From assembly GCA_018970605.1 (NCBI GenBank), contig JAGWWA010000002.1, forward strand, positions 272 through 64,271: a DNA stretch of 64,000 nt. Direction: 5' to 3'. The notes under the pieces were generated by a model. It had not been told where the DNA came from. It made no database searches and saw only the letters and a list, made by a program, of their open reading frames with translations. Shown here in pieces: positions 1,794 through 60,726 of this stretch (positions are counted from its first letter, which is position 1; each line of letters begins with the position of its first letter). Position numbers and translations under genes: made by a program. Source of the stretch: Planctomycetota bacterium (GTDB taxonomy: Bacteria > Planctomycetota > Planctomycetia > Pirellulales > UBA1268).

Positions 1794-2160
1794 AAGCCCC
1801 GAGCGGCAGCGAGGGGATCCACGTCCGTCATGCCAGCCAGGAACGTCCCACTGCCACGCCCGTCCCACTGCCACGCCCGTCCCCTCGCTGGCGCTCGGGG
1901 CTTTTTGTTTCTGCCAATGCAACCAGCTCGGGGCTGCCCGTGCCCGGGAGCCGGCGTTGCTGACGAGCGAAGCCATGGATGGCGGAGCGAAGTCAGCATC
2001 GAGCGAGCGCAGGGCAGGATGCCCGTAGCGAGCGTCCGGCGACGGGCATGGGCAGCCCCGAGCGGCGGGGCGGAGTCGGCCGTGCCCCCATCGCTCACGC
2101 GATTGCGCTTCCTGAGTTCGGAGCGAGCGTCCGGCGGCGGGCATGGGCGGCCCCGAGCGG
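1794..2160 (+). repeat. Intergenic repeat mosaic 1: module E inverted pair (1794-1817/1880-1903) enclosing a 17-bp tandem duplication, module C (1926-2063), module A (2083-2116), partial C end (2126-2160)
   Basis: aagccccgagcggcagcgagggga pairs with tcccctcgctggcgctcggggctt. The unit cgtcccactgccacgcc occurs twice at 1844-1877. The C stem is gctcggggctgcccgtgccc/gggcatgggcagccccgagc. Confidence 0.9.
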
Positions 2161-2237
2161 CGCGCCACGGGAAGGCCGCGGCTCGTCAACTTTCACGTAC
2201 CGGCCGGGATCGGCTACCCTGTGAACCGGTGAACAGC

Positions 2238-3263
2238 ATGGAATCCTTCCGCCAGCCCAGCATTCAGGCTCCCGCCGCCGACGACGCCCCGCCGGAGGAC
2301 CGCGCGCTGCGGCCCCAGCGGATGGACGAGATGATCGGCCAACGAGCCGTGCACGAGCGGCTGATGATCGCCATCGATGCGGCGCGGAAGCGGGGCGAGA
2401 CGCTCGGCCACATCCTCCTCGACGGGCCGCCCGGCCTCGGCAAGACGACGTTCGCCACCTGCATCCCGCGGGAACTCGGCACCACCCTCCAGATCGCCAG
2501 CGGTGCCGCCCTCGCGGCGCCGAAGGATCTGCTGCCCTACCTCACCAATGCCGCCGAGGGCTCGGTGCTGTTCATCGACGAGATCCATCGGCTGCCGATC
2601 GCGGTGGAGGAGTTTCTGTATCCGGCGATGGAGGATTTTCGGATCGACATCACGCTCGGCGACGGCGTGGCGGCCCGGACGATCAACATGCCGCTGCGGC
2701 CGTTCACGCTGGTGGGAGCCACCACGCGGGCCGGCCTGATCTCGGCCCCGCTCCGCGACCGGTTCGTGATCCGCGAGCACCTCGACTACTACTCCGTCCC
2801 GGAACTCGCCGCGATCGTCCACCGCTCGGCCGGCAAACTCTCGATGCCGATGGACGATGAGACGGCCGACGAGATCGCCCACCGCAGCCGCGGCACTCCC
2901 CGGCTGGCCAACAACCGGCTGCGATGGATCCGCGACTTCTCCACGAGCAGGGCCGACAGCCAGATGAGCGTGGGGATCGCCCGCACGGCCCTGGAGATGC
3001 AGGGAATCGACGAACTCGGGCTCGATGGCTTCGACCGCAAGTATCTGGAGACGATCCAGCGTGTGTTCGCCGGCGGTCCGGTGGGGATCGAGGCCATCGC
3101 CCACACCATGAGCACCGCCTCCGACACGCTGGAGGATGACGTTGAGCCCTACCTGCTCCGCTGCGAACTGATCGTCCGCACGCCCCGGGGCCGGCGGCTC
3201 ACATCCAAGGGAGATGAACACCTCGGCGCCCCGCCGAAGGCCGGCCAGGGGAAGCTCTTTTGA
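2238..3263 (+). CDS. ruvB: Holliday junction DNA helicase RuvB
   Basis: LRPQRMDEMIGQ, Walker A GPPGLGKTT, LFIDEIHRL, GATTRAG and RGTPRLAN. The ORF-track extension back to 1830 runs through repeat DNA. Confidence 0.97.
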   Translation: MESFRQPSIQAPAADDAPPEDRALRPQRMDEMIGQRAVHERLMIAIDAARKRGETLGHILLDGPPGLGKTTFATCIPRELGTTLQIASGAALAAPKDLLPYLTNAAEGSVLFIDEIHRLPIAVEEFLYPAMEDFRIDITLGDGVAARTINMPLRPFTLVGATTRAGLISAPLRDRFVIREHLDYYSVPELAAIVHRSAGKLSMPMDDETADEIAHRSRGTPRLANNRLRWIRDFSTSRADSQMSVGIARTALEMQGIDELGLDGFDRKYLETIQRVFAGGPVGIEAIAHTMSTASDTLEDDVEPYLLRCELIVRTPRGRRLTSKGDEHLGAPPKAGQGKLF

Positions 3264-3282
3264 TGGGTTTTTCCGAGGCGGA

Positions 3283-3312
3283 TTGACCTTTCCCCGGCTT
3301 CGCGGCTACTCT
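3283..3312 (+). promoter_or_regulatory. Putative sigma70 promoter for the rpmF-fab operon
   Basis: TTGACC (3283-3288), 18-nt spacer, TACTCT (3307-3312), about 50 nt upstream of rpmF. Confidence 0.4.
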
Positions 3313-3360
3313 CTGGGGCTCTCGCGATCCCGTTCAGGCGATTCCAGTTCAGGTGATTCC

Positions 3361-5353: not shown

Positions 5354-5405
5354 GATAGCGGATTCGAGGCAGGTCTCGAAGTCTGCTCCCGCTCCCGCCT
5401 CCGAA

Positions 5406-5601
5406 TGCCCCCATCGCTCACGCGATTGGGCTTCCTGAGGTCGATCGCAGGAAGCGTAACGCCGTCAGGCGTACGGCCGCCGCGCGCACGACGGAGCCGG
5501 CGCGAGGAGCCCTCATCGCTCACGCGATTGGGCTTCCTGAGGCCCGATCAGCGCACCACCGCCGGCACGCCCCCATCGCTGACGCGATTGGGCTTCCTGA
5601 G
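5406..5601 (+). repeat. Repeat mosaic 2: three module A copies (5406-5439, 5508-5541, 5568-5601) with a module B-like hairpin at about 5452-5477
   Basis: cccatcgc(tcac/tgac)gcgattgggcttcctgagg occurs three times. The hairpin acgcc-gtca-ggcgt lies in the first spacer. Confidence 0.92.
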
Positions 5602-5798
5602 GTCTGACCGGCACGGAGACGCCACGATCGCCCGGGTTTTCCCGGGCTGGACACTGGCGGTCGGGAACGGGTATATCTTCCCCGACAACCCAGGCAAGGT
5701 GCGCAGCCTCGGAGGGCTGCCGCCGATCCCGTCAGACCGCCCCGCCCCGCTCGCCGCCCAACCGCGGCCGGCAGCCGGGCTCCAGGAGGATTCACAAG

Positions 5799-13907: not shown

Positions 13908-14308
13908 GCACCCGACGACTGTTGAAGGCGGCCGAGGCGGTTCGGGAGGTGGTCAGCATGGCCATCCTCACGGAGGTCCGCGACCCGCGGGTCAAGGACG
14001 TCACGGTGACCGGCGTCGAGATGGCTCCCGACATGCGGTCGGCGATCGTGCATGTTTCGATCATGGGTGGCCCGGCGAAGGAGAAGCTCGCGCTCCAGGG
14101 TCTCGCCCGATCGGCAGGCTTCCTGCAATCGCGGATCGCCGACCGGATCGAAACCCGCTACACGCCGAAGCTCCGCTTTGAACTCGACGGCGGCATCAAG
14201 AAATCGATCGAAATCGCCCGCATGCTCCACGAGGTCCTTCCGCCGACCCCGACGGACGACGACACCGAACCATCCTCCCCTTCCGTGGCCTCCCAGGACG
14301 ACGCATGA
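13904..14308 (+). CDS. rbfA: 30S ribosome-binding factor RbfA
   Basis: EVRDPRV, VTGVEMAPDMRSA and RYTPKLRF. Its GTG overlaps the infB stop (GTGA). Confidence 0.93.
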   Translation: MSTRRLLKAAEAVREVVSMAILTEVRDPRVKDVTVTGVEMAPDMRSAIVHVSIMGGPAKEKLALQGLARSAGFLQSRIADRIETRYTPKLRFELDGGIKKSIEIARMLHEVLPPTPTDDDTEPSSPSVASQDDA

Positions 14309-15660
14309 CCGCCCCGAAGAAGCCCGCCGGCAAAAAGCCGGCCCACGCCCCGAAGAAGCCCATCGCCAAAGCGGCCGCCAAGCCGGCCGCCAAACCAGGA
14401 TCAAAGCCCGCACCGACGAAGGCGTCCCCTCCCGTCAAGGCATCGGGCAAGTCGGCCCCGGCGAAGGCCGGGGGGCCGGCGAAGGCCGGGGGGCCGGCGA
14501 AGGCCGGGGGGCCGGCGAAGGCCGTGGGTCCCGCGAAGGCCGCGGCCGCCGCGAAACCCGTCGTACCCGCGAAGGTCGAACCACCGAAACTGCCGCCCGA
14601 GAAGGTGCCGCCGCGGGCCCAGTTGATTCCGAAACTTCACAAGGCGCTCAAAGCCGCCTACAAGCCGGTGCCGTTCGACACCGCCCGGCCGCTGCTCGAC
14701 CAGGTGCTCGTGGCCTGCTGCCTCGAGAACGCCCCCTACGACGTGGCCGAGAAGGCCTGTGCACGGCTGCGTGAGTCGGCCTTCGACCTCAACGAGATCC
14801 GCGTGACCACCGTCGCGGAACTCGCCGAGTTCCTCCACGACCTGCCCGACCCGGCCCATGCCGCCCTCTCGCTCCGCCGCGTGCTGCAGAGCGTGTTCGA
14901 ATCGACCTACAACTTCTCGCTCGACCACGCCAAGAAGCACTCCCTGGCCCACGGCCTCAAGGTGCTCGAGGGCATGCACGGCGTGCCGCCGTTCGTCGTG
15001 GCACACGTCGTCTCGACGGCGCTCGACGGACACATGATTCCGCTCGACAAGGGGGCGATCGCGGCGCTCTACGTGTGCGGGCTGACGACGCGGGCGGAGT
15101 ACGACTCCGGCAAGGTGCCCGGCCTGGAACGGATCATCGGCAAGAAGTCCGGGGTGGAGTTCAGTTCGCTGCTCCACCAGTTCGGCATCGAGGTGCTCAC
15201 CAACCTCCACGGCAACACCGTGCGGAAGGTGATGCAGGCGGTGAACCCGGCGGCCCTCAAGGACCGCATGCCGAAGCGGGGCGACCCGCTCCCGACCCCT
15301 ACACCACCGCCGCCCGCCACCGACAAGGAGAGCCTCAAGGCCGCCGAAGCCGCCCGAAACGCGGCCGAGGAGCACCGCCCGGCCGGCCCTCAGGCAGCGG
15401 CCCGCCCCGTGGGGAAGACGCCAATGCCCCCCGCCGGGTCGGGACCCAAGAAGCCGGGCGACGGCAAGTCGGGGCCGAAGCCGTTCGTGGTGAAGCCGAA
15501 CGTCGGCAAACCGCTGACGATCAAGCCGCAGATGGCTCCGCCGCCGGAGCCCGCGAAGCCGGCGCCGGCCGCCAAGAAGCCGACGAAGCCCGCCGCCAAG
15601 CAACCCGACGCGAAGGGAGACCGTCATTCGGCCGACCTGAGCAAGCGGAAGCCCCGGTGA
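14305..15660 (+). CDS. Hypothetical protein with Lys/Ala/Pro-rich (histone H1-like) termini and a degenerate endonuclease III/HhH-like core
   Basis: PAKA repeats at the N-terminus and a KKP-rich C-terminus. Core reads LLDQVLVACCLEN..DLNEIRVTTVAEL..GHMIPLD. ATGA overlap with rbfA. Confidence 0.7.
   Translation: MTAPKKPAGKKPAHAPKKPIAKAAAKPAAKPGSKPAPTKASPPVKASGKSAPAKAGGPAKAGGPAKAGGPAKAVGPAKAAAAAKPVVPAKVEPPKLPPEKVPPRAQLIPKLHKALKAAYKPVPFDTARPLLDQVLVACCLENAPYDVAEKACARLRESAFDLNEIRVTTVAELAEFLHDLPDPAHAALSLRRVLQSVFESTYNFSLDHAKKHSLAHGLKVLEGMHGVPPFVVAHVVSTALDGHMIPLDKGAIAALYVCGLTTRAEYDSGKVPGLERIIGKKSGVEFSSLLHQFGIEVLTNLHGNTVRKVMQAVNPAALKDRMPKRGDPLPTPTPPPPATDKESLKAAEAARNAAEEHRPAGPQAAARPVGKTPMPPAGSGPKKPGDGKSGPKPFVVKPNVGKPLTIKPQMAPPPEPAKPAPAAKKPTKPAAKQPDAKGDRHSADLSKRKPR
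14458..14541 (+). repeat. In-frame 18-bp tandem repeat encoding PAKAGG
   Basis: ccggcgaaggccgggggg three times, followed by degenerate copies. Confidence 0.85.
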
Positions 15661-18131: not shown

Positions 18132-19322
18132 TCAGGGGCCGACCGCCACGCACACGGGAATCGTGAATTCGGGCGAGTCGGGGTGGCCGGTGGCGAGCAC
18201 GATCCGGCCCGCCGGCCCCTGCTGCGAGCAGAGGTGGTTGACCGCCCGGCTGCCCGGCGGAATCACGATATCGATCGGTATCCGCACCGCACCGCCGGTG
18301 CCGATCGGGCTGCCGTCGCCGACCGTCACCTGCAGCGACTCGGGCACCACCTCGCGGACAACCGGCCGCACGCTGTCGCGATGCGGCCCCTTCGCCGTGA
18401 GAAACACCCTCGTGCGCAGGCCCGTCTTGCCGGAGACCGTCCCCAGCAGCAGGGCCTGACGGGAGGAATCCCATCCGGGGCCAGCCATGACAAGATCACC
18501 CCCGACCGTTCCCTCCAGCGGAATCTCGGCCACGAGGGGTTCGGGCATCGTGAACGACACCCGGACCGTTCGCTTGAGCGGACCGATCGGCAGACCCGGT
18601 TTCAGATCGACCGTCAGCCGAAACCCGCCGGTCGCTCCCGTCTCACCAGCGACCTCCTCAGCCGACAGCGGCGCCGTGGCAAGCGACACAAACTGGGCGA
18701 TCTTCGCGTCATCGAGGGCCACCTCGGTCACCTCGGGAGATTCCGTCCCGTACGTATAGACGTCGGTGGTCACCCGCTCGCCGGAGGACGCCGACACCCG
18801 CGGCACCGCGAGCAGATCGGGAACTGCCTTCCACGTTGGGACGACCGTGCCCTCCACGGTGAAGACCACCTCCGGCCGCCGTGGATCGTCGGTGAGGATC
18901 GTGGCCTGCTGACGGAACGGACCTCCCGGCGGTTTTGCCTTCCACTGCACGCGGATCTTCGTCTCGCCGCCGGGCAGCACCACTCGCGTGCCATCCGCCG
19001 AGCCACCTTCGTTGGCCTCGAAGTCGCTGACGGTGCAGGTGCAACTCGTCGTGCCCTTGCGGAGCGTGAGGGGGCCGTCGCCCCCATTGCGGACGACGAA
19101 CTCATGGGAACCACTTCCACCCGTGCCGAGCGTACCGAACGCGTGCCGCACCTCGGTCGTCTCGGCCCGAGGTGCCGGACCAGACACCGCCGACGACACG
19201 CGCAGGTCGCCCACCGTCCATGGAGTCGCGCGCTGCAGAAACGCACCTCCGGCTCCGACCGCCACGCCTGCCACGGCGGCCACGGCGGCCACCCACCACG
19301 CGTTGAGTTTCTCCACGGTCAT
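18132..19322 (-). CDS. DUF1573 domain-containing membrane-anchored protein
   Basis: N-terminal TM segment, then HAFG..HEFVVRNGGDGPLTL..TSCTCT and ILTDDPRRP. Confidence 0.8.
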   Translation of the reverse strand: MTVEKLNAWWVAAVAAVAGVAVGAGGAFLQRATPWTVGDLRVSSAVSGPAPRAETTEVRHAFGTLGTGGSGSHEFVVRNGGDGPLTLRKGTTSCTCTVSDFEANEGGSADGTRVVLPGGETKIRVQWKAKPPGGPFRQQATILTDDPRRPEVVFTVEGTVVPTWKAVPDLLAVPRVSASSGERVTTDVYTYGTESPEVTEVALDDAKIAQFVSLATAPLSAEEVAGETGATGGFRLTVDLKPGLPIGPLKRTVRVSFTMPEPLVAEIPLEGTVGGDLVMAGPGWDSSRQALLLGTVSGKTGLRTRVFLTAKGPHRDSVRPVVREVVPESLQVTVGDGSPIGTGGAVRIPIDIVIPPGSRAVNHLCSQQGPAGRIVLATGHPDSPEFTIPVCVAVGP

Positions 19323-19446
19323 TGGCCGGCCACGTGATGCGCCATGTCCATCGTGCGGCCACCCTCCGGCCGACACTCCAAGATTTGCATTCTAGCCACC
19401 GGTCCGAACTCGTCCTTGCGGAGGAACCGCCAAGGCGGGCCAGAAA

Positions 19447-19669
19447 GGCACACAGGTTGAAAACCTGCGCTACGAGAGGCAGCGAGGGGCTGCCCGTGCC
19501 CGGGAGCAGGCGTTGCTGACAAGCGCAGCCAGGATGGCGGAGCGCAGTCAGCATCGAGCGAGCGAAGGGCCGGAGCCCGCAGCGAGCGTCCGGCGACGGG
19601 CATGGGCAGTCCCGAGCTATGCGGCGGTGCCAGCAGGCCCCCATCGCTTCCGCGATTGGGCTTCCTGAG
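19447..19669 (+). repeat. Repeat mosaic 3: D (19447-19473), C (19481-19617), A (19637-19669)
   Basis: cacaggttgaaaacctgcgctac, a full C module, then cccatcgcttccgcgattgggcttcctgag. Confidence 0.9.
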
Positions 19670-19691
19670 TCCATCGCCGATGGCGAGAGAA

Positions 19692-21197
19692 TCAGTACGA
19701 GCGCGCAAGCACGCTCCGGCGACTGACCGGCTTACCGGTGACCACGCAAGTGCCTGGTTCGTCGTCGCCGTCCATCGGAATGCACCGTACCGTCACCTTC
19801 AGCGGATCGAAGGCCGCGGCCACCGCCGGGTCGTCGGCGACGTGCACATGGGCAAAACCGCCCTTGCCGGCCGCCCCCTCCCCTGCCCCGAAGAAGTCGT
19901 GCACGGCCGCGGCCGAGTCGAGACGCACCGACCGCTCCGCGCGAAACGCCTTCGCGCGGTCGAAGAGACCCTGCTGGATCTCGGCGAGGAGCGCCGCGGC
20001 CTTGGCTGGAAACTCCGCCAGCGGCACCGACTCTCGATCCTTCGGCCCGCGGTCGCGGCGGGTCACGCTCACCGCCCCGGCCGCCAGATCGCGTGGTCCG
20101 ATCTCGACGCGAATCGGAACCCCCTGCTTCACGTGCTGCCAGACCTTGTCGCCACCCCGCATGTCGCGGGCGTCGATCTTCACGCGGATCGGTTCGTCGC
20201 CGAACCGGCAGGCGGCGAGCTCGGCCTGCAGCGTCCGACAGGCCTCCATCACTGTCGCCTTCTCCTCGTCGGTGCGGTGGATCGGCAGGAGCACGACCTG
20301 GTGCGGCGCGATCCGCGGCGGCAGCACGAGCCCGTCGTCGTCGGAATGGGTCATGATCACGGCCCCGATCAGCCGCGTGGACACACCCCACGACGTCGTC
20401 CAGCAAAACTCCTCCGCCCCGCTCGTGCCCGCAAACTTGATGTTCTGCGCCTTGGCGAAGTTCTGACCGAGAAAGTGCGACGTGCCGGCCTGCAGGGCCT
20501 TGCCGTCCTGCATCATGGCCTCGATGGAATACGTGTCGACGGCGCCGGGAAACCGCTCGGCCGCCGGCTTCGGCCCCTTCACCACCGGCATCGCCAGGTC
20601 GCGCTCCGCGAACGTGGCGTATACCTCCAGCATCCGGAGCGTCTCCTCGACCGCCTCCGCGCTCGTGGCGTGGGCCGTGTGCCCCTCCTGCCAGAGAAAC
20701 TCCGCCGTCCGCAGAAACAACCGCGGCCGCATCTCCCAGCGGACGACGTTGGCCCACTGATTGATCAGCACCGGCAGATCGCGCCACGACTGGATCCACT
20801 TGGCGTACATCGCGCCGATGATCGTCTCGCTGGTGGGCCGCACGACGAGCGGCTCCTCGAGCTTTCCGGTGGGGATCAGCTTGCCGTCGGGGCCGAGTTC
20901 GAGGCGGTGGTGCGTGACCACCGCGCACTCCTTGGCAAAGCCCTCGACATGCTTCGCTTCCTGCTCGAGGTAGGACAGCGGAATGAAAAGCGGGAAGTAG
21001 GCGTTCTGATGGCCCGTCTCCTTGAACATCCGGTCGAGGATCGTCTGCATCCGCTCCCACACGGCGTAGCCGTGGGGCTTGATCACCATGCAGCCGCGGA
21101 CGGGCGACTGCTCCGCGAGGTCGGCGGCCCGCACGACCTGCTGATACCACTCGGGATAGTCCTGAGCCCGCGTGGGGCTGATGGCGGTCTGGGCCAT
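19692..21197 (-). CDS. proS: Proline--tRNA ligase (archaeal/eukaryote-like type, no INS editing domain)
   Basis: DYPEWYQQVV, VRGCMVIKP, RPTSETI, FLRTAEFLWQEGHT, LQAGTSH and C-terminal ARSY. Confidence 0.97.
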   Translation of the reverse strand: MAQTAISPTRAQDYPEWYQQVVRAADLAEQSPVRGCMVIKPHGYAVWERMQTILDRMFKETGHQNAYFPLFIPLSYLEQEAKHVEGFAKECAVVTHHRLELGPDGKLIPTGKLEEPLVVRPTSETIIGAMYAKWIQSWRDLPVLINQWANVVRWEMRPRLFLRTAEFLWQEGHTAHATSAEAVEETLRMLEVYATFAERDLAMPVVKGPKPAAERFPGAVDTYSIEAMMQDGKALQAGTSHFLGQNFAKAQNIKFAGTSGAEEFCWTTSWGVSTRLIGAVIMTHSDDDGLVLPPRIAPHQVVLLPIHRTDEEKATVMEACRTLQAELAACRFGDEPIRVKIDARDMRGGDKVWQHVKQGVPIRVEIGPRDLAAGAVSVTRRDRGPKDRESVPLAEFPAKAAALLAEIQQGLFDRAKAFRAERSVRLDSAAAVHDFFGAGEGAAGKGGFAHVHVADDPAVAAAFDPLKVTVRCIPMDGDDEPGTCVVTGKPVSRRSVLARSY

Positions 21198-21302
21198 GGG
21201 TCGCTCCGTCGATCGATGTGAGAAAAGGCTCGTTGCCGGATGGGGCCGGGATTGTAGTCGCTGCTTGTGAAGGCGGGGAAACCCGCCGTAGACTCTGCGG
21301 CA

Positions 21303-22268
21303 ATGCCACGCCGCCTGATCACCGAACTGCCACAACAGACCCAGCTCGATCAGACCTTCCTCGCGACGCACAAGCAGCTGCGGCCGAACCGCAACGGGCA
21401 GCTCTATCTCCAGGTGGAACTCGCCGACAAGAGCGGCACGATCACGGGGCGGCTCTGGAACGCCTCCGACGACGACTACGGGGCCTTCGAGGACGGCGAC
21501 TATGTCCGCGTCGAGGGGCACACGCAGCTCTACTCGGGCTCGATGCAAGTCATCATCACGGCGATCGAGCGGGCCGATCCGCGGACGGTGGACGAGAGCG
21601 AGTTCCAGGTCCTCTCCACCAACGACTTCGTCCGCCTGGAGGCCGAGCTCGGCACGATCCTGGGAACCATTCGATCGGTGCCGCTCAAGACGCTCGTGGA
21701 CGAGATCCTCGCCGACAAAGCCCTGATGGACGCCTTCAAGCGGACACCCGCCGGCGTGAAGCACCACCATGCCTACGCCGGCGGCCTGCTCGATCACGTC
21801 GTCAATCTCCTGCGGCTCGCCGACCGGGTGGCCCCCCTCTATCCGGCGCTCGACCGCGATCTGCTGCTCGTGGGAGTGCTCGTGCACGACATCGGCAAGG
21901 TCCGCGAACTGGAGAGCCTGCAAGGCTTCTCCTACACCGACGAGGGGCAACTCCTCGGCCACGTGCTGCTGGGCCTCGAAATCGTGGACGCGAAGATCCG
22001 TGCGATCGAGGCCCGCACCGGCCAGCGGTTTTCCATCGAGGCAGCCGTGCGTGTGAAGCACATGATCGCCAGCCACCACGGCCAGTACGAGTATGGCTCG
22101 CCGAAACTGCCGATGACGCTCGAGGCGGTGGCCCTCCACCATCTCGACCACCTCGACGCCAAGATGGCCGGCACGATCCAGCTGCTCCAGAACGAAGCCA
22201 CCGCGGAGGATGGCTGGACGCAGTACCAGCAGAGTCAGGGCCGCAAGTTCTTCCGCGGCCGCGGCTGA
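21303..22268 (+). CDS. YhaM/Cbf1-family OB-fold + HD domain 3'-5' exoribonuclease
   Basis: LADKSGTI OB fold, HHHAYAGGLLDH, HDIGK, SHHG..YGSP and HHLDHLDAK. Confidence 0.9.
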   Translation: MPRRLITELPQQTQLDQTFLATHKQLRPNRNGQLYLQVELADKSGTITGRLWNASDDDYGAFEDGDYVRVEGHTQLYSGSMQVIITAIERADPRTVDESEFQVLSTNDFVRLEAELGTILGTIRSVPLKTLVDEILADKALMDAFKRTPAGVKHHHAYAGGLLDHVVNLLRLADRVAPLYPALDRDLLLVGVLVHDIGKVRELESLQGFSYTDEGQLLGHVLLGLEIVDAKIRAIEARTGQRFSIEAAVRVKHMIASHHGQYEYGSPKLPMTLEAVALHHLDHLDAKMAGTIQLLQNEATAEDGWTQYQQSQGRKFFRGRG

Positions 22269-22305
22269 CGGCTCGCGGCTGCAAGCACGATCAGCGAGGA
22301 GGGCA

Positions 22306-22582
22306 TGCCCCATCGCTTCCGCGAGTGGGCTTCCTGGATGCGTCACGAGTGGTGAGCGAGGGGCTGTCCATGCCCGGGAGCCGGGCTGTGGGAGCAAGCG
22401 AACCCAGGATGGCGAAGCGCAGCGGACACGCAGAGAGCCGAGGCCTGGAGGGCCGAGGCGAACGTCCGGCGACGGGCGTGGGCAGCCCCGAGCGGCACGG
22501 CGACCATGCCCCCATCGCTTCCGCGATTGGGCTTCCTGATTCTCGGCATGCCCCCATCGCTTACGCGATTGGGCTTCCTGAG
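22306..22582 (+). repeat. Repeat mosaic 4: A (22306-22337), C (22355-22493), A, A (22507-22539, 22549-22582)
   Basis: Direct sequence comparison. The last two A copies have a 42-bp period. Confidence 0.9.
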
Positions 22583-22586
22583 CGCG

Positions 22587-24707: not shown

Positions 24708-25231
24708 AGGCCCGCCGACCCGGTCGTCTCCTTCTGGCGCTGCTCCTTCTTGGCGGGAAACTCCACCACGACGAGCTTCTTCGCCTCGGGATCGAACGCG
24801 TATTCCTGGTAGTAGGGCAGCATCGGCAGCGAAACCTCGTCGGGCGTGCCCGGGGCGATGATCTTGGCCATGAACTCCTTGTGCGTGGCGGGAACCTTGT
24901 TGTGCTCCGCCTGGTAGAGCTTCATCTTCTGTTCCACGGCGAGGCCGCCGATCGTGGCCACGCTGTGGCGATAGGCCTGCGAGTAGGCGCCGAGGCCGCC
25001 CTCCTCTGCCTCCGCGGCGTTGTCGACCACCACGCCTCCCTGCGCCTTCGCCTCGGCGAGGTCGAGGACGTTCTGCGTCGTCTTGCCGACGGTCTTTCGC
25101 GTCTGGATGGGCGCCGTCTGGACGGCGTTCGGACGTGACGACGCCTCGGGCGTCGGCGCCGGGTCATCACAACCGACGACCAACGCGGTGAACGGAACGA
25201 ACAACACGACCCGCCAGCCTCGAGTGCTCAT
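24704..25231 (-). CDS. Hypothetical lipoprotein
   Basis: Lipobox-like LVVGC after a hydrophobic stretch. 4-bp overlap with the downstream beta-helix gene. Confidence 0.7.
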   Translation of the reverse strand: MSTRGWRVVLFVPFTALVVGCDDPAPTPEASSRPNAVQTAPIQTRKTVGKTTQNVLDLAEAKAQGGVVVDNAAEAEEGGLGAYSQAYRHSVATIGGLAVEQKMKLYQAEHNKVPATHKEFMAKIIAPGTPDEVSLPMLPYYQEYAFDPEAKKLVVVEFPAKKEQRQKETTGSAGL

Positions 25232-25404
25232 GGAAGCTCCTGCCTGAAACGCGACCACGCCGGAAATCAGGGCGGCACCGCCCTCGCGGCCTCATCGTAG
25301 ACGATCGGCCGCCTCGCATGGGCGATCCCCCACATCCGGCTGTAGAATCCTGGTGCCGGATGGTGCCGGCACATCCGCGACGTGCCGACCGCAGGATCCT
25401 TGCC

Positions 25405-27519: not shown

Positions 27520-27621
27520 GGCTTGTGTCGTGTCGGGGTGTGCGTGGATGACCCGACCGCGCCGCACCCCGTCCTGCCTGAATCTCTGGTGGAAGACTGA
27601 GAACGGAAGGCAGCCCAGAAA

Positions 27622-27918
27622 GGCACACAGGTTGACAACCGATGCGACCAGCGGCGAGCGAGGGGCTGCCCGTGCCCGGGAGCCGGCGTTGCTGACGAGC
27701 GGAGCCATGGATGGCGGAGCGATGTCAGCATCGAGCGAGTGAAGGCCAGGAAGGCCGCAGCGAGCGTCCGGCGACGGGCATGGGCAGCCCTGAGCGGGAG
27801 GTGTCCGAGGCAGGCACACGGGTAGACAACCGATGCGACCAGCGGCGCACCGCCAGCACGACCGGGGCCGCGATGTGGTTCCACCCGCTATCCCCTCGCT
27901 GGCGCTCGGGGCTTCCTG
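27622..27918 (+). repeat. Repeat mosaic 5: 35-bp direct repeats (D variant, 27622-27656 and 27813-27847) flanking C (27657-27795), plus an E half (27891-27918)
   Basis: ggcacac(a/g)ggt(t/a)gacaaccgatgcgaccagcggcg occurs twice, and tcccctcgctggcgctcggggcttcctg follows. Confidence 0.9.
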
Positions 27919-29165: not shown

Positions 29166-29225
29166 CCGCATCCGCTATCCTTCACCAGTCGGCAGCAAGT
29201 CGATCGACCCGAGGAGTGACTATCC

Positions 29226-31605: not shown

Positions 31606-31998
31606 GACGGGGCATACGCGGCCCCGAGCGGTGCGGAGCCAGCATGCCCCCATCGCTTACGCGATTGGGCTTCCTGAGTCCCGGCATGCCCCCATCGCTC
31701 ACGCGATTGGGCTTCCTGACCAGGAAGCGAGGGGATGCCCGTGCCCTCGAGCGGGCTGTGGGAGCAAGCGAAGCCACGATGGCGAAGCGCAGCGGACACG
31801 CAGTGAGCCGAGGCCGGGAGGGCCGAGGCGAACGTCCAGCGAGACGGCATGGGCGGCCCCGAGCGGTGCGGAGCCAGCATGCCCCCATCGCTTACGCGAT
31901 TGGGCTTCCTGAGTCCCGGCGTGCCCCCATCGCTTACGCGATTGGGCTTCCTGAGTCCCGGCGTGCCCCCATCGCTTACGCGATTTGGCTTCCTGATG
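31606..31998 (+). repeat. Repeat mosaic 6: partial C end, A, A (31645, 31687), C (31726-31864), A, A, A (31880, 31922, 31964)
   Basis: Five A copies with a 42-bp period and linker tcccggc(a/g). The lead-in gccccgagcggtgcggagccagca is duplicated. Confidence 0.93.
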
Positions 31999-32170
31999 CA
32001 GGGAGCGAGAGGCCCCGAGCCCGTGAGCATCGACCGGGCAAGACAGGCGGTTCGGGCGGGCTTGCTCCGGCAGGGCCCGTCCCTCTAGGTTCCCGCCCCC
32101 GCACGCCGGCGGGAACCGGAGTCTCCCGTTGCACCTGCCCGTCCGCTCCCCCCGCTCGCCCGCGCTGTCG

Positions 32171-41417: not shown

Positions 41418-41861
41418 ATGGCACGCAAACAGAGCGATGGACCGTCGAAAACCGACATCGACATGACGCCGATGATCGACATGACGTTCCAGCTGATCAC
41501 GTTCTTCGTGTTCACGCTCAACTTTTCGACCGCCGTGCAGGACGATCGGGTGCAGCTGCCGATGAGCCAGCTCGCCAAGCCGGCCGAAGGGCCTTCGGTC
41601 GATCCGATCACGCTGCAGCTGATGAGCGACGGGCGTGTGATCTATGCGGGGGAACCGGTGTCGCTCCAGGAAATTGGCGGCTACCTCGAGAATGAGAAGC
41701 GGGTGATGATCGCCTCGAACAAGGAGCCGAGGTCGGCCACCGTGATCGTCCGGGCCGACGGCCGCTCCAAGACGGGCGACGTGCAGGAGCTGATCAAGGC
41801 CTGCCAGGAGAAGGGGTTCGAGAGGTTTGTGCTGCGGGCACAGTACGACGAGAGCAAATGA
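41418..41861 (+). CDS. ExbD/TolR family protein
   Basis: DMTPMIDMTFQLITFF and IVRAD. Confidence 0.92.
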   Translation: MARKQSDGPSKTDIDMTPMIDMTFQLITFFVFTLNFSTAVQDDRVQLPMSQLAKPAEGPSVDPITLQLMSDGRVIYAGEPVSLQEIGGYLENEKRVMIASNKEPRSATVIVRADGRSKTGDVQELIKACQEKGFERFVLRAQYDESK

Positions 41862-41873: not shown

Positions 41874-42350
41874 GTGGTCGCAAAGCGGGAAGCCCTCTCC
41901 GACAGGATCTCCATCGACATGACGCCGATGATCGACGTCGTGTTCCAGCTGATCACGTTCTTCATGCTCACGCTGAGGACCGTGATCACCGAGGGCGACT
42001 TCGACATCCGCATGCCGCTCGGCGCCAGCGTTGGAGCCGCCTCGGAGGATCAACTCCCGCCGGTCCGCGTGAGGATGACCGCCGGCCCCGGAGGCGAACG
42101 CACCAGCCTGACGATGAACGGCCAGCCGATCGGCGACTTCGATGAGTTGCGGCGGCGGATTGTCGACCTCGTCGGCGCCGGCCCCGGCTCGAGCGCCGAC
42201 AAAACCGAGGTGGAACTCGATTGCGACCCCGACCTCAGCTACGACAACGTGATCCGGGCGGTGACCGCCGTCTCGGGGCAGGTCCAGCCCGACGGCACGG
42301 TGGTGGAACTGATCAAGAAGATCAAGTTCGCGCCGCCGAAAAAGAAGTAG
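41874..42350 (+). CDS. ExbD/TolR family protein (second copy)
   Basis: DMTPMIDVVFQLITFF. Confidence 0.9.
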   Translation: MVAKREALSDRISIDMTPMIDVVFQLITFFMLTLRTVITEGDFDIRMPLGASVGAASEDQLPPVRVRMTAGPGGERTSLTMNGQPIGDFDELRRRIVDLVGAGPGSSADKTEVELDCDPDLSYDNVIRAVTAVSGQVQPDGTVVELIKKIKFAPPKKK

Positions 42351-42510
42351 CAGGCTCATCCACGTGTTGTGTGGACAGCCGGTAACTTGCGGGCTGGAAA
42401 AGTTCATAACCCGATCGTGCCTGCCCTCGACCGGGCTATTGAAGCAATCGCAGCCACGACCAATCCGCCTGCGGCGGATCGGTGCCCGGCGAAGTGCAGG
42501 CAGCATCGTG

Positions 42511-42671
42511 TGAGCGAAACCCAGGATGGCCGCAGCGAACGTCCGGCGACAAGGCACGGGCGGACTCTCGCTCGCCCTCAGTAGCACAGGTTGTCAACCT
42601 GTGCCGAGATCACGGCTGAAGCGCTCCACGCCGCGATGCGCCACATGTGCAGGTTGACAACCTGCACCTAC
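42511..42671. repeat. Partial module C (42511-42578) and GTAG-tagged REP doublet D (42581-42671)
   Basis: GTAGcacaggttgtcaacctgtgc ... gtgcaggttgacaacctgcacCTAC. Confidence 0.85.
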
Positions 42672-43630
42672 TTCCGCGGGTGGAACTTCTCGTGCACCGC
42701 CCGGAGGCGGCCGGCATCGACGTGCGTGTACCGCTGCGTCGTGGCGATGCTGGCGTGCCCGAGCATCTCCTGAACGTGCCGGAGGTCGACGCCTCCCGCC
42801 ACGAGATGCGTGGCGAAACTGTGCCGCAGCGTGTGGGGGCCGATGTCACTCGGCACGCCGGCGTTGTCGGCATGCAGTCGCACGATCTCCCAGATTCGCA
42901 TCCGCGACAGTCGGTTGCCACGAGTGGAAAGCACCGCCCAGGAGGGCATTCCAGTGGCTCGCGCGGCAAACGCCTGCCGGGGGCCGTCGAGCCAGGCCCG
43001 GACGGCGGCGATCGCCCGCCGGCCGAGCGGCACCACCCGCTCTTTGTTTCCCTTGCCGCGGCACGTGCAGAAGCTCTCCGCGAGATGCACGTCGCCGAGG
43101 CGAAGCGTGGAGACCTCGGAGGCACGGCAGCCCGTGGCGTAGAGCAACTCCAGCAGCGCCCGGTCGCGGCAGGCCCGGGGCGACCCGCCCTCGGGGCTCT
43201 CCAGCAACCGATCCACCTGGGCCGGCGAGAGCGTGCCCGGGATCACGTCGTCCCGCTTCGCGGCGGTGATCAGCTCCGCGGGACTCTCGGTGATGACGCC
43301 CTCGAGTTGCAGGAATGCGTAGAAGGTCTTGAGCGTCGCCGCCTGCCGGGCGATGCTCGCCCGCGCCAGGCCCTTCTTCGCGAGGGCCGCGAAGTAGTCG
43401 CCCAGGTCGCGCACGGTGAGGGTCGCCGGGGGCCGGCCGGCCAGCCACGCGGTGAAGTCACGGAGGTCGCGGCGGTAGGCAGACTGCGTGTTGGCGGCGA
43501 GCGCCCGCTCGTGACGGACGTAGTCGAGAAACCGCTCGACGAGGATCGAGGCCGCCGCCCCCGTCTCCGCCGCGACCACCTGGTCGAGCACGATCTTCCG
43601 CGTCCGCCGTGGCTTTTGTGAGTCACTCAT
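42668..43630 (-). CDS. xerD: Site-specific tyrosine recombinase XerD (XerC/D family)
   Basis: NTQSAYRRDL, RDRALLELLYATGCR, GKGNKER, PHTLRHSFATHL and LGHASIATTQRY. XerD versus XerC is not certain. Confidence 0.85.
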   Translation of the reverse strand: MSDSQKPRRTRKIVLDQVVAAETGAAASILVERFLDYVRHERALAANTQSAYRRDLRDFTAWLAGRPPATLTVRDLGDYFAALAKKGLARASIARQAATLKTFYAFLQLEGVITESPAELITAAKRDDVIPGTLSPAQVDRLLESPEGGSPRACRDRALLELLYATGCRASEVSTLRLGDVHLAESFCTCRGKGNKERVVPLGRRAIAAVRAWLDGPRQAFAARATGMPSWAVLSTRGNRLSRMRIWEIVRLHADNAGVPSDIGPHTLRHSFATHLVAGGVDLRHVQEMLGHASIATTQRYTHVDAGRLRAVHEKFHPRK

Positions 43631-43682
43631 GTACGCCGGCGGCAACCTCCACGCCCACCCCAGGGCTCACGGCCTCCTGATC

Positions 43683-43812
43683 CGTCCAAGCCCAACGCCG
43701 TGAGGCGTGGGGCGAACCGCCACCGGACGCGGCGTTCAGCGTGGTATGCCCGCGGCCTTCCGGCTGGTCGGCTTCCACACGCACCATCCAAGCCCAACGC
43801 CGCGAGGCCGTG
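43683..43812 (+). repeat. Module B repeat (full copy plus a second hairpin)
   Basis: ccaagcccaacgcc-gtga-ggcgtggggcgaaccgccacc..., with a second ccaagcccaacgccgcgaggc at about 43788. Matches 55830-55896 (-) and 60229-60300 (+). Confidence 0.8.
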
Positions 43813-51686: not shown

Positions 51687-51798
51687 CGTCGAGTTCGCCC
51701 CATGGGCCGACACGATTCCAGGCGATTCAGCCTACGACACCCGCACGATGCGTGCCACACGGCTGCGAGCCGCGGGATGATCCTTCGAACGACCGTCA

Positions 51799-52089
51799 TC
51801 CCCTCGCTGCCGCTCGGGGCTTTCTGGAGGCAGCCAAGGATCGAGAGAGACGGAGCCGGCGTGCCCCCATCGCTCACGCGATTGGGCTTCCTGAACGGCG
51901 AGCGAGGGGCTGCCCATGCCCGGGAGCCGGCGTTGCTGACCAGCGCAGCCAGGATGGCGAAGCGCAGGCAGCATCGAGTGAGCGGAGGGCAGGATGCCCG
52001 TAGCGAACGTCCGGCGACGGAGCGTGGGCAGCACCGAGCGGCGTGGCGAAGTCAACGTGCCCCCATCGCTCACGCGATTGGGCTTCCTG
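51799..52089 (+). repeat. Repeat mosaic 7: E half (51799-51826), A (51862-51894), C (51901-52039), A (52058-52089)
   Basis: Direct sequence comparison with the other loci. Confidence 0.9.
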
Positions 52090-52106
52090 GCACGTGAACG
52101 TTCGGC

Positions 52107-58404: not shown

Positions 58405-58549
58405 GGGCGGGCAGTCGGGCGACGCGGGCAACGGCTCGGGGAAGAGCCTACCCCCGGATCCGCCGACCAACAACACGCCGCCCGACAGACCGAGGGCGAC
58501 CGTGAGCCCGCGACCCGCTATGATTCGAGGTGTTGTCGAGGAGCGGTCG

Positions 58550-59134
58550 ATGCAGTGCCAACAGTGCGATAAGCAGGCGGTCTTCCACATCACCGAGTTG
58601 GAGACGGGCGAGGTGCGCGAACTCCACCTCTGCGAGGACCACGCGCGCGTCTACCTCAACCAGTCGGAGGCGGCACAGGAGGGGGAGGAGAAACCGGCCG
58701 GTGGACTGTCGGGCCCGCTGACGGTCGGCCAGACCGCCGACGAACTCGCGCTCCTCGACAAGAAGGCCTGCCCGATGTGCGGCATCACCTTCTTCGAATT
58801 CCGCAACCAGGGGCGACTCGGATGCCCCCACGACTATGTCCACTTCGAGAAGGAACTCGAGCCATTGATCGCCAACATTCACGGTGGCACGCAGCACACC
58901 GGCCGCCGGCCGGAGCGGCCCGCGATGGCGGGTGGCGACGCGCTGCCGGAGGGCACCGACGATCTCACACGCGTGATCGGGCTCCGCCGGAGCATGCAGG
59001 AGGCGATCTCCTGCGAAGCCTACGAACGGGCCCGCGAGGATCGCGACGCGGTGCGGAGCATCGAGGAACGGTGGCTGACGGGGCCGCAGACCGGGGCAGG
59101 GCCAACGAACGAAGGCGGACGGGGCGACCGATGA
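58550..59134 (+). CDS. mcsA: Protein-arginine kinase activator McsA (UVR domain)
   Basis: CQQC, LCEDH, CPMC, GRLGCPHDY and C-terminal UVR EAYERA..RD. ATGA overlap with mcsB. Confidence 0.92.
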   Translation: MQCQQCDKQAVFHITELETGEVRELHLCEDHARVYLNQSEAAQEGEEKPAGGLSGPLTVGQTADELALLDKKACPMCGITFFEFRNQGRLGCPHDYVHFEKELEPLIANIHGGTQHTGRRPERPAMAGGDALPEGTDDLTRVIGLRRSMQEAISCEAYERAREDRDAVRSIEERWLTGPQTGAGPTNEGGRGDR

Positions 59135-60195
59135 AACTTGACACCCTCGCCGAGGACGTCGGCGAATGGCTCCGGGGCACGGGTCCGGAATCGGACATCG
59201 TGATGAGCAGCCGCGTGCGGCTCGCCCGGAACGTGGCCCACTATCCGTTCGTGAGCCGCCTGTCGGACCAGGATCGCGGTGACGTCGAGCGGTTCCTCCG
59301 CGAGCGGATCACCGCCTCTTCGGCCGGCAGCCAACTCGAGTACATCGACGTCGGCCGGCTGGAGGAGGTCGACCGACAGTTCCTCGTGGAGCGGCAGTTG
59401 ATCAGCCGCGAACACGCCGAGGCCCAGGGGGCTCGCGGCGTGGCGATCGACGGCCGCGAGCAGGTGAGCCTGATGATCAACGAGGAGGACCACCTCCGGA
59501 TCCAGTGCATGCACAGCGGCCTCGACCTGCGGGGGGCCTGGGAGCAGATCAGGGCGGTCGACGACCAGATCGGCCGGGTCGTGCCCTACGCCTTCCACCC
59601 GCGATGGGGCTACCTCACCGCCTGCCCCACCAACGTGGGCACCGGCATCCGGGTGAGCGTGATGCTGCACCTCCCGGCCCTGGTCATCACACGGCAGATC
59701 GACAAGGTCTTCCGGAGCCTGCACAAGATCTCCCTGGCGGTCCGCGGCCTCTACGGCGAGGGCTCCCAGGCGATGGGCGACTTCTACCAGATCTCCAACC
59801 AGACCACGCTCGGCAAGACCGAGGAGGAACTGATCGAGCAGGTCGGCGACGTGGTGCCGGTGCTGATCGACTACGAGCGGCGGGCCCGCGAGTTTCTGGT
59901 GCGGGAAACCCAGCAGAACGTCCACGATCAGGTGAGCCGCGCGTACGGCATCCTCCGGACAGCCCAGACGATCACCGCCGAGGAGACGATGCAGCTCCTC
60001 TCCCGAGTCCGCATGGGGGTCCTGCTCGGGCTGATCGGCGACGTGAAGATCGCCGACATCAACTCGCTTCTCGTCCGTACGCAGCCGGCCCACTTGCAGA
60101 AGATCCGCGGCGTCGAGCTCGACACGAAGGACCGCAACATCGAGCGAGCCCGCTACCTTCGCCGCCATTTCGAAGGCGGCCCACCGCAGAACTGA
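59131..60195 (+). CDS. mcsB: Protein arginine kinase McsB
   Basis: SSRVRLARN, INEEDHLR, CPTNVGTG, RGLYGEGS and QISNQ. Confidence 0.95.
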   Translation: MKLDTLAEDVGEWLRGTGPESDIVMSSRVRLARNVAHYPFVSRLSDQDRGDVERFLRERITASSAGSQLEYIDVGRLEEVDRQFLVERQLISREHAEAQGARGVAIDGREQVSLMINEEDHLRIQCMHSGLDLRGAWEQIRAVDDQIGRVVPYAFHPRWGYLTACPTNVGTGIRVSVMLHLPALVITRQIDKVFRSLHKISLAVRGLYGEGSQAMGDFYQISNQTTLGKTEEELIEQVGDVVPVLIDYERRAREFLVRETQQNVHDQVSRAYGILRTAQTITAEETMQLLSRVRMGVLLGLIGDVKIADINSLLVRTQPAHLQKIRGVELDTKDRNIERARYLRRHFEGGPPQN

Positions 60196-60228
60196 CAAGG
60201 GGCCGTCAAGAGCCTCGCGCGGTCGACG

Positions 60229-60726
60229 TCCGAGCCCAACGCCGCGAGGCGTGGGGCGAGCCACCACACAATGCGGCGTCCAGCGTGGTTTGCCCGAGGC
60301 CTCGTGCGGTTCCCACGTGATCCTCGCGCGTTTCTGCACGGAACCCTCAAAGCCCGGAGCGGAAGCGACGGGAACGGCTCCGCGGATCGGCACGCATCGC
60401 TCGCGGCCGCCACGCGTGATCCCCTCGCTCCCGCTCGGGGCTTCCTGGCGGAGCGACACCGCCGCAGGAACGCCTCAGGATCACGTGCCAGTCGTAGAGG
60501 CCCCGACGGCATCGGGTCTTCAGGGCCTTCGCAAGGGAATGGCGGTGAGGGGCAGCCCATGCCCCGAGAGCCGGCGTTGCTGGCCAGCGTAGGCAGGATG
60601 CCGGAGCGCAGCCAGCATCGAGCGAGTGGAGGGCAGGATGCCCGCATCGAGCGTCCGGCGATGGGGCGTGGGCTGCCCCTCACCGGCGCCGGCGGCACGA
60701 GCAGGTTGGAAACCGTCTGTTCTGCG
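60229..60726 (+). repeat. Repeat mosaic 8: B (60229-60300), E pair (60350-60448), C (60544-60684), D-like (about 60698-60726)
   Basis: The C terminal stem is ggtgaggggcagcccatgcccc/ggggcgtgggctgcccctcacc. The other modules were identified by comparison. Confidence 0.88.

Follow-up and report, generated by a model that had tools for sequence, protein, structure and literature searches.

Co-oriented repeat modules in an uncultured planctomycete genus ignore gene direction and mostly follow GC skew

Why should intergenic repeats all point one way when the genes around them do not? The question is raised by a stretch of 64,000 nt from Planctomycetota bacterium (UBA1268; GCA_018970605.1, contig JAGWWA010000002.1, positions 272 to 64,271, forward strand), here called the window. 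A preliminary description had reported every copy of two modules, A and C, in a single orientation. Both modules are structured and mobile between species, and they measure 42 nt (A) and 141 nt (C). The partner of A, A', consists of CAGGAAGC and a hairpin. The hairpins of A and A' look inverse to each other, giving two hairpin types in opposite orientation, and GGGCTT 3' of the hairpin (AAGCCC 5' on the other strand) is common to modules A, A', D and E.

The window was searched with the core of module A, GCGATTGGGCTTCCTG, and with profiles of A and C. With up to 3 mismatches allowed, the core matched 17 times, compared to 0.98 expected from shuffles, and 15 of these were A copies on the + strand with 0-1 mismatch. 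The two other matches, at 34971 (- strand, 2 mismatches) and 59601 (+ strand, 3 mismatches), lie inside coding ORFs, are unrecognised by the A profile and were rejected as A copies. Profile searches returned 15 A copies, 7 full-length C copies and 2 partial ones (2116-2161 and 42420-42571), all on the + strand. The uniform orientation was thereby confirmed, as was the lack of a true reverse copy, the lone - core match being the rejected one at 34971. The same-strand rule is limited to A, A' and C. Module D faces both ways in the window, with one copy on - (1790-1818) and four on +, and the palindromic module B matched both strands.

In our own clustering the A and C copies fall into nine loci (Table 1) rather than the eight first counted, and co-orientation extends across all of them. 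The flanking genes were called with our own ORF caller and Pfam. Four spacers are +/+, three -/- and two convergent, so the described mixture of flanks was recovered, except that the spacer listed as convergent between yhaM and a beta-helix gene is -/- in our calls. Agreement of 9/9 loci has a probability of about 0.004 for independent coin-flips and of about 0.05 under the genome-wide polarity of about 0.72 reported below. The two E-type modules in Table 1 belong to the same family as hairpins bracketing another Y1 clade in relatives.

Table 1. Repeat modules of the window, with flanking genes, positions and strand
Feature	Flanking genes	Position	Strand	Modules
Locus 1	ruvA-like/ruvB, +/+	1790..2161	+	D inverted pair (1790-1818 -, 1879-1907 +), C 1923-2067, A 2080-2119, partial C 2116-2161
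Locus 2	fabG/acpP-fabF, +/+	5403..5603	+	A 5403-5442, A' (CAGGAAGC + hairpin) 5448-5474, A 5504-5543, A 5563-5603
Locus 3	DUF1573/proS, -/-	19451..19672	+	B hairpin 19451-19474, C 19478-19622, A 19631-19672
Locus 4	proS/beta-helix protein, -/-	22303..22584	+	A 22303-22340, C 22352-22498, A 22504-22541, A 22544-22584
Locus 5	RNase R/gcvT, +/+	27626..27918	+	B-like 27626-27649, C 27654-27798, D 27890-27918
Locus 6	FHA protein/TPR protein, +/+	31640..31999	+	A 31640-31681, A 31682-31719, C 31723-31869, A 31875-31916, A 31917-31958, A 31959-31999
Locus 7	ExbD/tyrosine integrase, convergent	42420..42608	+	partial C 42420-42571, palindromic B 42580-42608
Locus 8	DUF3500/mutM, -/-	51798..52090	+	D 51798-51826, A 51857-51895, C 51898-52044, A 52053-52090
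Locus 9	mcsB/coaD, convergent	60419..60683	+	D 60419-60447, C 60542-60683
E-type module		43683..43758	-	AAGCCC + hairpin on + reading; hairpin + GGGCTT on -
E-type module, second copy		60227-60302		

The genome as a whole holds 186 A copies, 261 D copies and 207 A/C loci, 204 of which are internally co-oriented. Of these 204 loci just 1 falls within a called gene, an extragenic location like that of REP systems. Orientation was found to be independent of transcription direction, as had been proposed: loci in co-directional spacers divide into 42 sense and 43 antisense ones, and within these spacers the element tracks skew and not gene sense (24:10 vs 12:27).

GC skew was corrected for transcription, and 162 loci of this genome were scored. 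The + form lies on the C-rich strand in 118/162 loci, and in 109/153 when the window's contig is left out; neither value was reached in any of 20000 contig-flip permutations. The polarity was alike across convergent (45:16), co-directional (51:22) and divergent (8:3) spacers. Since the elements are G-rich on the + form, any incompleteness of masking would work against the sign that was found. C-containing loci followed skew in 90/121 cases (82/113 without the window's contig) and A-only arrays in 28/41. The polarity is solid for C-containing loci and doubtful for A-only arrays. D showed no polarity in this genome (30:25 for singletons, 78:75 for all copies), and E was weakly opposite (25:43). 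The window is an extreme sample of a genome-wide polarity of about 72:28: of the 5 contigs that carry at least 5 loci, only its own is fully uniform.

GC skew probably marks replication direction in the genus; all genus genomes examined were drafts, and the skew gives the sign of a contig, not a mapped origin or terminus. No skew switch was found at dnaA in these drafts, and no contig spans one. The G-rich strand is usually the leading strand, and the C-rich strand is then not the lagging-strand template. No independent marker of the leading strand was found, and genes showed no preference for either strand as defined by skew (484:494 and 517:581), an observation that weighs against the explanation proposed below. 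The earlier claim that orientation follows replication thus gains from the skew correlation in two genomes, but not in its strict form, given the ratio of about 72:28 and agreement in only 62/101 adjacent pairs.

The second of these genomes is that of another species (G074), in which C copies were polar in 75/106 cases on 17 contigs (2.06 Mb), or 80/111 when contig C22 was included. The contig-flip P value was 5e-5 (1/20000), and 13/14 non-tied contigs agreed in sign; contig C2 was near even (9:10). Contig C3 of genome G071 gave 5:2. In a third genome (G042, 5 contigs) A-only arrays followed skew in 5/15 cases and all loci together gave 11:12. The sign of C polarity was the same in all genomes tested for C, and a query holding C was found in 24/24 genus genomes searched. 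Syntenic flanks in this genome were found for 22 G074 loci, and 17 of these sites are empty here; among the 5 spacers that hold a locus in both species, 3 differ in orientation. Of 204 copies, 202 have their nearest relative within their own genome. Because sites are mostly unshared and nearest relatives almost always lie within a genome, the two genomes are nearly independent samples. The repeats were amplified within each species.

Y1 transposase genes were found in the genus. On contig C85 of this genome a protein matches PF01797 (Y1_Tnp) by a small margin (24.9 bits in the genome search and 24.5 in the protein scan, cut-off 23). A sequence-only PDB search with this protein was weak (E 0.29). 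Its fold model (pLDDT 83.3) gave structural matches with E values of 1e-4 to 3e-3 and TM up to 0.67, and the top 28 ranks were all ISDra2, IS608, IS200, TnpA-REP or other Y1-type transposase chains. H93-V-H95 and Y154...Q159 (HUH and Y-x4-Q) are invariant in 16 homologues. The protein remained below the cut-offs of the NCBIfam profiles for RAYT/TnpA-REP (NF047646, 23.7 bits vs 80) and IS200/IS605 TnpA (NF033573, 28.2 bits vs 55).

The C85 gene is bracketed on both sides by D pairs, and a second, partial Y1 gene on contig C149 of this genome is followed by A-A'-A. In 4 relatives the Y1 gene has A' and A on its two sides: at Y1 loci L018, L019 and L029 A'/A stand on both sides of the gene, and at L020 A' stands upstream and A downstream. 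These four A-flanked genes form one clade (support 93/89), and Y1 clades match hairpin families. Y1 HUH transposase genes bracketed by A/A' or D hairpins therefore exist in the genus, and a Y1 gene with dispersed hairpin copies on both sides has the flanking arrangement of a REPtron. C copies were found beside 0/29 Y1 loci. No Y1 gene was detected by protein search or Pfam family in the G074 draft, where C is abundant, and none in the drafts of G020 and G016, both 97% complete. The abundance of C, the robustly polar module, in genomes without a detectable Y1 gene speaks against a Y1 explanation. The suggestion of HUH-type transposition is accordingly borne out in part, by Y1 genes with A, A' and D hairpins, and lacks a link for C. 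The expectation that Y1-linked modules share the polarity failed for D (none) and E (weakly opposite), and A-only arrays were inconsistent (28/41 vs 5/15).

The arrangement resembles the REP/BIME/REPIN-RAYT REPtrons of Proteobacteria, with high-copy extragenic hairpins in mosaic or tandem arrays and a single-copy Y1 HUH gene bracketed by cognate hairpins, its clades matching the hairpin families. A and A' are inverse types, like y and z REPs, and D forms inverted doublets, like REPINs. Unlike REPtrons, the modules have no 5' GTAG/GTGG foot (GT[AG]G) and carry a hairpin with GGGCTT instead, the Y1 protein scores below the RAYT cut-off, and the arrays are strictly co-oriented with a three-armed C of 141 nt that has no REPtron counterpart. 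Replication-skew polarity is a further difference; for gene-less REP/BIME-type repeats, which far outnumber IS200/IS605 insertion sequences, the literature surveyed gave only a remark, in the accessible text of one paper, that tandem REP arrays of P. fluorescens SBW25 hint at a replication polarity (PMC3116915).

Similarities to IS200/IS605 elements (IS608, ISDra2) were also observed. The fold is Y1 HUH, with ISDra2 and IS608 TnpA as top structural matches. On the gene's sense strand A' is left-end-like (conserved 5' stretch and hairpin) and A right-end-like (hairpin and conserved 3' stretch), no target duplication was detected, and orientation is probably biased relative to replication. The available portions of two papers describe Y1 transposition of IS200/IS605 as using the lagging-strand template, which gives an orientation bias (PMC3971601; PMC3333891). 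Here, by contrast, the ends form an 8-nt inverted repeat (CAGGAAGC...GCTTCCTG) and both strands therefore look alike, gene-less copies number in the hundreds, the bias is less strong and the IS200 profile score is low. If the G-rich strand is leading and the Y1 sense strand active, the direction of the bias is, by the usual skew rule, opposite to that of IS200 genes and IS608; this too stands against the Y1 explanation. By description, the system is close to the 'class 3' TnpA_Y1 of Quentin et al. 2018, which in the accessible text are found mainly in Planctomycetes, Acidobacteria and Proteobacteria and have a Y...Q motif and atypical flanking hairpins in up to hundreds of copies (bioRxiv 10.1101/279083). 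The 5' foot CnGA given there is not clearly recognisable here.

A, A' and C are best read as co-oriented modules of a REP/BIME-like mosaic system, with an orientation that ignores transcription, agrees with GC skew at about 72 of 100 loci and is likely set at replication forks, with Y1 (HUH) enzymes as predicted agents. We give this reading a probability of roughly 0.45. Single-stranded copies would be inserted (or excised) at forks, leading to polarity, and Y1 transposases like the A/A'-flanked ones may carry this out. Younger copies (64:21) and older copies (60:25) were equally polar by a crude age proxy, which fits insertion bias better than progressive loss, and the polarity thus probably arises at insertion. 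C would then be moved by a Y1 enzyme; an HUH cause of its polarity is plausible but unproven. Flanking direct repeats did not exceed the shuffled level, that is, no target-site duplication was seen. No fixed short insertion target was recognised. Filled and empty sites were too diverged to fix the junctions. No long element bounded by C arms was found in this genome.

Orientation-dependent survival is the closest competitor, though a clearly less probable one. Insertion would be random, and copies with the stable hairpin strand (forward for C) on the lagging-strand template would be lost more often, via slippage, SbcCD-type cleavage or enzymatic excision, so that the opposite orientation becomes enriched among the survivors. 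C lies at gene ends and forms an imperfect, rod-like palindrome of about 140 nt with three arms, in form similar to ERIC/IRU and other long structured intergenic repeats. Its forward strand is more stable than the complement in 126/126 copies with DNA parameters and 124/126 with RNA parameters. In most cases this stable strand is the C-rich one, which by the usual skew rule is not the lagging-strand template. Survival needs no transposase and fits the genomes without Y1. A precedent is found in the E. coli RRS repeats, which disturb replication when their structured strand is in the lagging-strand template, according to the accessible text of PMC11194060; like C, these have one structured strand and a non-random orientation relative to the fork, but they are 2 fixed copies, compared to more than 100 mobile copies of C. 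However, polarity was no stronger in the older copies, and the spread to new sites within each species is left without account. In A and D it is the reverse strand that folds better, even though A shares the orientation of C. This disagreement of strand stability between modules also weighs against the proposed fork insertion.

An improbable alternative gives C a function as a polar element of the chromosome, beyond that of a selfish repeat: a strand-asymmetric, folded 141-nt rod read directionally at the fork by a replication, repair or segregation machine (Chi, KOPS or RRS-like), its orientation kept by selection across the genus. C could in that case be a high-copy counterpart of the gap-triggering or topology elements of the E. 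coli RRS type. One strand of C keeps its fold between species through compensatory changes in the arms, and both the presence of C in all 24 genomes and the constant sign of its polarity agree with such a role. A skew of 72% is also in the range of Chi in E. coli. Chi/KOPS-type motifs are strongly strand-skewed and read by RecBCD/AddAB or FtsK, but they measure about 8 nt, far shorter than the structured, mobile modules of 42 and 141 nt, and we know of no protein partner of C. Site turnover is fast (17/22 not shared), orientation differs in 3/5 shared spacers and 28% of copies are reversed. The replication-linked, DNA-level system put forward earlier is thus partly supported, whereas a strict architecture signal is not, the polarity being too leaky.

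A role at the RNA level, as terminators, mRNA stabilisers or small RNAs on flanking transcripts, is very improbable. The hairpins are strong, and convergent spacers are enriched (69/167 classified loci vs 278/1535 gene junctions) and divergent ones depleted (13/167 vs 278/1535), but insertion tolerance predicts this 3'-end enrichment too. Sense and antisense loci are balanced and no T-run follows the hairpins in the window, so that they do not look like intrinsic terminators, and no Rfam family reached threshold in the window. Chance or local duplication, with no genome-wide rule, is just as hard to sustain: adjacent loci often disagree and some large samples are near 50:50 (contig C2 of G074, the G042 loci), but contig flips reached the observed polarity in 0/20000 cases here even without the window's contig and 1/20000 in G074, and agreement between loci did not decay with distance.

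The polarity and the Y1 link of these repeats are new here. In practice the gain is modest: these repeats break up the assemblies of the genomes that carry them, and contigs could be oriented with the help of their polarity. In an uncultured planctomycete genus, a structured repeat family is thus given a quantified and replicated polarity of about 72%, and its neighbouring hairpin modules are linked with a divergent Y1 group whose hairpins resemble left and right ends. The repeats provide a natural system for asking whether such sequences spread via single-stranded DNA at replication forks, and also a means of telling insertion bias apart from orientation-dependent loss.

The repeat mosaic of the window was searched with whole-module profiles, and fifteen copies of module A together with seven full and two partial copies of module C were found, all on the + strand. 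The uniform orientation reported in the preliminary description was borne out, with the number of loci (clusters of modules) rising from eight to nine. Four of the spacers holding these loci lie between +/+ genes, three between -/- genes and two between convergent genes, the flanking genes having been checked with Pfam; the proS/beta-helix spacer, earlier taken as convergent, is of the -/- type. Module A measures about 42 nt and consists of a short hairpin (CCCATCGC-TyAC-GCGATTGGG) followed by CTTCCTGAG. Fifteen + strand matches to its core were found, none with more than one mismatch, the shuffled expectation being about one match at three mismatches. The sole - strand match to the core and one match with three mismatches both fall in coding ORFs, and neither is recognised by the whole-module profile. 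Module C is about 141 nt long, with a closing stem of about 15 bp (GGGGCTGCCCGTGCCC ... GGGCATGGGCAGCCCC) and hairpins inside. The loci also contain further modules, namely A', B, D and E; both orientations were seen in the window for modules D and B. An Rfam search of the window gave no family at the gathering score. The arms at the outer ends of C (GCGAGGGG ... CCCCGAGC), for which tandem G.A or Watson-Crick variants occur, are the two D-hairpin arms with their order exchanged. This hints at, and does not prove, a recognition helix that C and D may have in common. A head-to-tail junction of two C units would regenerate a D-like hairpin.

Other features of the window were recorded. Five 18-nt tandem repeats (GCCGGCGAAGGCCGGGGG-like) lie within an ORF, and the protein would therefore bear a repeated hexapeptide. 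A tyrosine recombinase gene (Phage_integrase and SAM-like N domain, XerC/D-like) has an E module on one side and the partial C/B locus on the other. Two neighbouring ExbD-type genes, which are tandem paralogues, are connected by a direct repeat of 63 nt (90% identity).

Repeat modules and other features, with their positions in the window
Feature	Position	Description
Module A'	5448-5474	CAGGAAGC and hairpin
Module B		palindromic hairpin
Module D		hairpin and GGGGCTTCCTG
Module E	43683-43758 and 60227-60302	
Outermost arms of C	1923-1935 and 2050-2067	compared with D hairpin
D hairpin	27890-27918	compared with C arms
A-core match, - strand	34971	
A-core match, three mismatches	59601	
18-nt tandem repeats	14440-14565	ORF 14305-15660
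63-nt direct repeat	41456-41518 and 41912-41974	
Tyrosine recombinase gene	42668-43645	
fabG-acpP spacer	5354-5650	

The source assembly is a draft of 2.86 Mb in 164 contigs, with a completeness of 76%, and the window is on contig C134. Genome-wide, 186 copies of A and 174 of C were counted by profile, forming 207 loci, and all modules faced the same way in 204 of these. The 121 copies of A', in 55 loci, were oriented like the neighbouring A/C locus in every one of 45 cases, and the mosaic is therefore strictly oriented within loci. Genes were called with our own codon-usage caller, which covered 79% of the genome and gave over-extended starts and reliable strands. The 204 uniform loci were classified as convergent (69), co-directional in sense (42) or antisense (43), divergent (13), at a contig edge (36) or inside a gene (1). 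Gene junctions as a whole number 979 co-directional, 278 convergent and 278 divergent; against this baseline the elements favour the 3' ends of genes and avoid promoter regions, and their sense is independent of the genes. Locus orientation likewise showed no relation to the strand that carries most genes of a contig (77:77). The earlier proposal that orientation follows replication and not transcription thus stands in part: orientation is unrelated to gene sense and correlates with GC skew, but neighbouring loci on the same contig agree in only 62 of 101 pairs. Among the five contigs with at least five loci, orientation was uniform only on the contig of the window.

The + form lay on the C-rich strand in 124 of 170 loci when raw skew was used with repeats masked, in 119 of 183 with third-position skew corrected for transcription, and in 118 of 162 with corrected whole-gene skew (109 of 153 without the window's contig). 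None of 20000 trials of random contig flips was as extreme as the observed polarity. Concordance between loci showed no fall-off with distance, and the observed pair concordance of 0.61 equals the 0.61 expected at a polarity of 0.73. Polarity was similar across convergent, co-directional and divergent spacers, and in co-directional spacers the orientation of the element tracks skew rather than gene sense. Of C-containing loci 90 of 121 were polar, and of A-only loci 28 of 41. No polarity was seen for D (78 polar to 75 counter-polar) or B (37:33), and E was weakly opposite (25:43).

A query with C and A found matches in 24 of 24 same-genus genomes and in none of 16 genomes belonging to the order's other families; all same-genus genomes looked at are drafts. 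The sample of one relative, G074, comprised 2.1 Mb in contigs of up to 265 kb, along the entire length of which the sign of the skew is constant. There, 75 of 106 C copies were polar (80 of 111 with contig C22 included), with a concordant sign on 13 of 14 non-tied contigs (contig-flip P = 5e-5). Of 22 G074 loci with syntenic flanks in the source genome, 17 are empty there, and at the five occupied in both genomes the orientation is opposite in three. Copies of C cluster by genome, 202 of 204 having their closest relative within their own genome, and both arms of the C stem carry compensatory changes between the two species. On these three grounds G074 can be regarded as an approximately independent sample. 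Contig C3 of a further genome, G071, gave 5:2. A list of orientations for G071 from pattern matching alone was discarded as noisy (43 matches against 25 for a control pattern), and a pattern from the palindromic arm was discarded as not orientation-specific. Five contigs of G042 (C9, C11, C45, C67 and C86; 143 kb), picked for many A hits, gave 11:12 over all loci, comprising 6:2 for C-containing and 5:10 for A-only loci with one mixed locus excluded. Raw GC skew is negative on all five contigs of this small sample, chosen by hit number, and its A-only arrays are mostly opposed to the polarity of C. There is good support for polarity in C, and polarity of A on its own is uncertain.

The genus carries Y1 genes, coding for HUH transposases of the IS200/RAYT-like type. 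The gene on contig C85 encodes 163 aa with a Pfam Y1_Tnp match just above cut-off; in NCBIfam the protein scored below the thresholds of both the IS200 and the RAYT family. The HUH and Y-x4-Q motifs show no variation among 16 homologues, and the predicted fold of the Y1 protein (pLDDT 83) matches the structures of ISDra2, IS608, IS200 and TnpA-REP. A PDB search from the Y1 profile, by sequence only, was weak (E 0.29). Homologues were found in 25 of 60 other same-genus genomes, mostly at contig ends. Inverted D pairs lie on both sides of the C85 gene, and each Y1 clade has its own pair of bracketing hairpin families, all of which terminate in GGGCTT. In four relatives the order is A' - gene - A, with further A'-A units beyond, and the proteins of these four A'/A-flanked genes form one clade (93/89). 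Contig C149 of the source genome starts with the final 41 codons of an A-type Y1 gene, followed by A-A'-A. Every Y1 gene is preceded by a similar AT-rich near-palindrome, TGTAC.-N4-.GTACAC or loosely CTGT-N8-ACA (positions 775-800 of extracted locus L006; L009-L032), which looks like a putative common operator and which we take to resemble an SOS/LexA-type box. On the Y1 sense strand the layout is like the ends of IS200/IS605 elements, A' being a conserved 5' stretch plus hairpin and A a hairpin plus conserved 3' stretch. Here, however, the 8 outermost nucleotides form inverted repeats; the two strands therefore look alike, and the layout does not reveal the active strand. The REPtron concept also fits Y1 genes with bracketing hairpins. 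As outlined in the available part of Quentin et al., a 'class 3' Y1 group in Planctomycetes has atypical high-copy hairpins, a description that fits the A- and D-type Y1 genes of the genus.

Module C was next to Y1 in none of 29 Y1 loci, and no autonomous long element bounded by C arms was found in the source genome. In G074, G020 and G016 (97% complete) C is present and no Y1 gene was detected; drafts easily lose repeat-flanked genes, so this is no proof of absence. In Logan contigs of four DNA runs, which break at repeats, no clean empty site was seen for window positions 18500-33000, and contig joints there connect different repeat copies. The 24 public runs listed included no RNA data set. 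The fabG-acpP spacer (L148-L152) holds an A/A' array in the source genome and G004 and a B-C unit in G010, and is empty (29-51 nt) in G016 and G023. It is a recurrent landing site at which modules turn over; its filled and empty forms are too diverged for exact junctions to be resolved.

The dnaA gene was located on contigs C55 of the source genome, C22 of G074 and C3 of G071, and no skew switch was found on these contigs, skew being negative over all 249 kb of the last. On that contig, between 150 and 205 kb (L157-L160), C copies go from five + to two - near dnaA (180.5 kb), too few to interpret. Genes showed no excess on the G-rich strand in the source genome (484:494) or G074 (517:581). It seems that the genus lacks the usual leading-strand gene bias, or that skew is no marker of the leading strand. 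If the G-rich strand is assumed to be leading, the majority orientation would place the Y1 sense strand on the lagging strand, the reverse of the IS200 bias given in the accessible text of PMC3971601, where orientation bias is documented for IS families. Modules disagree on which strand folds more stably, and folding therefore does not fix the active strand. As far as the available excerpts go, BIMEs may use the lagging-strand template in one model (PMC3333891), and tandem REP arrays of P. fluorescens change from forward to reverse between the two sides of the genome (PMC3116915).

The likeliest cause of the polarity, to which we give a probability of roughly 45%, would be that single-stranded copies are inserted or excised strand-specifically at replication forks. 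This is favoured by the richness of the genus in Y1 systems and by the spread of copies within each species. It is also favoured by the lack of detectable target-site duplications at C, where flanking direct repeats were not above the shuffled level, and by copy age, with which polarity did not differ, older copies being not more polar. The main rival, orientation-dependent loss of copies, is rather unlikely; in every copy of C the forward strand is more stable than the reverse one and, by the usual skew rule, avoids the lagging-strand template, as such loss would have it. A strict signal of chromosome architecture is improbable, since 28% of copies are reversed and insertion sites turn over. 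The counts establish that polarity in these repeats is a DNA-level property, independent of transcription and tied to whatever causes GC skew.
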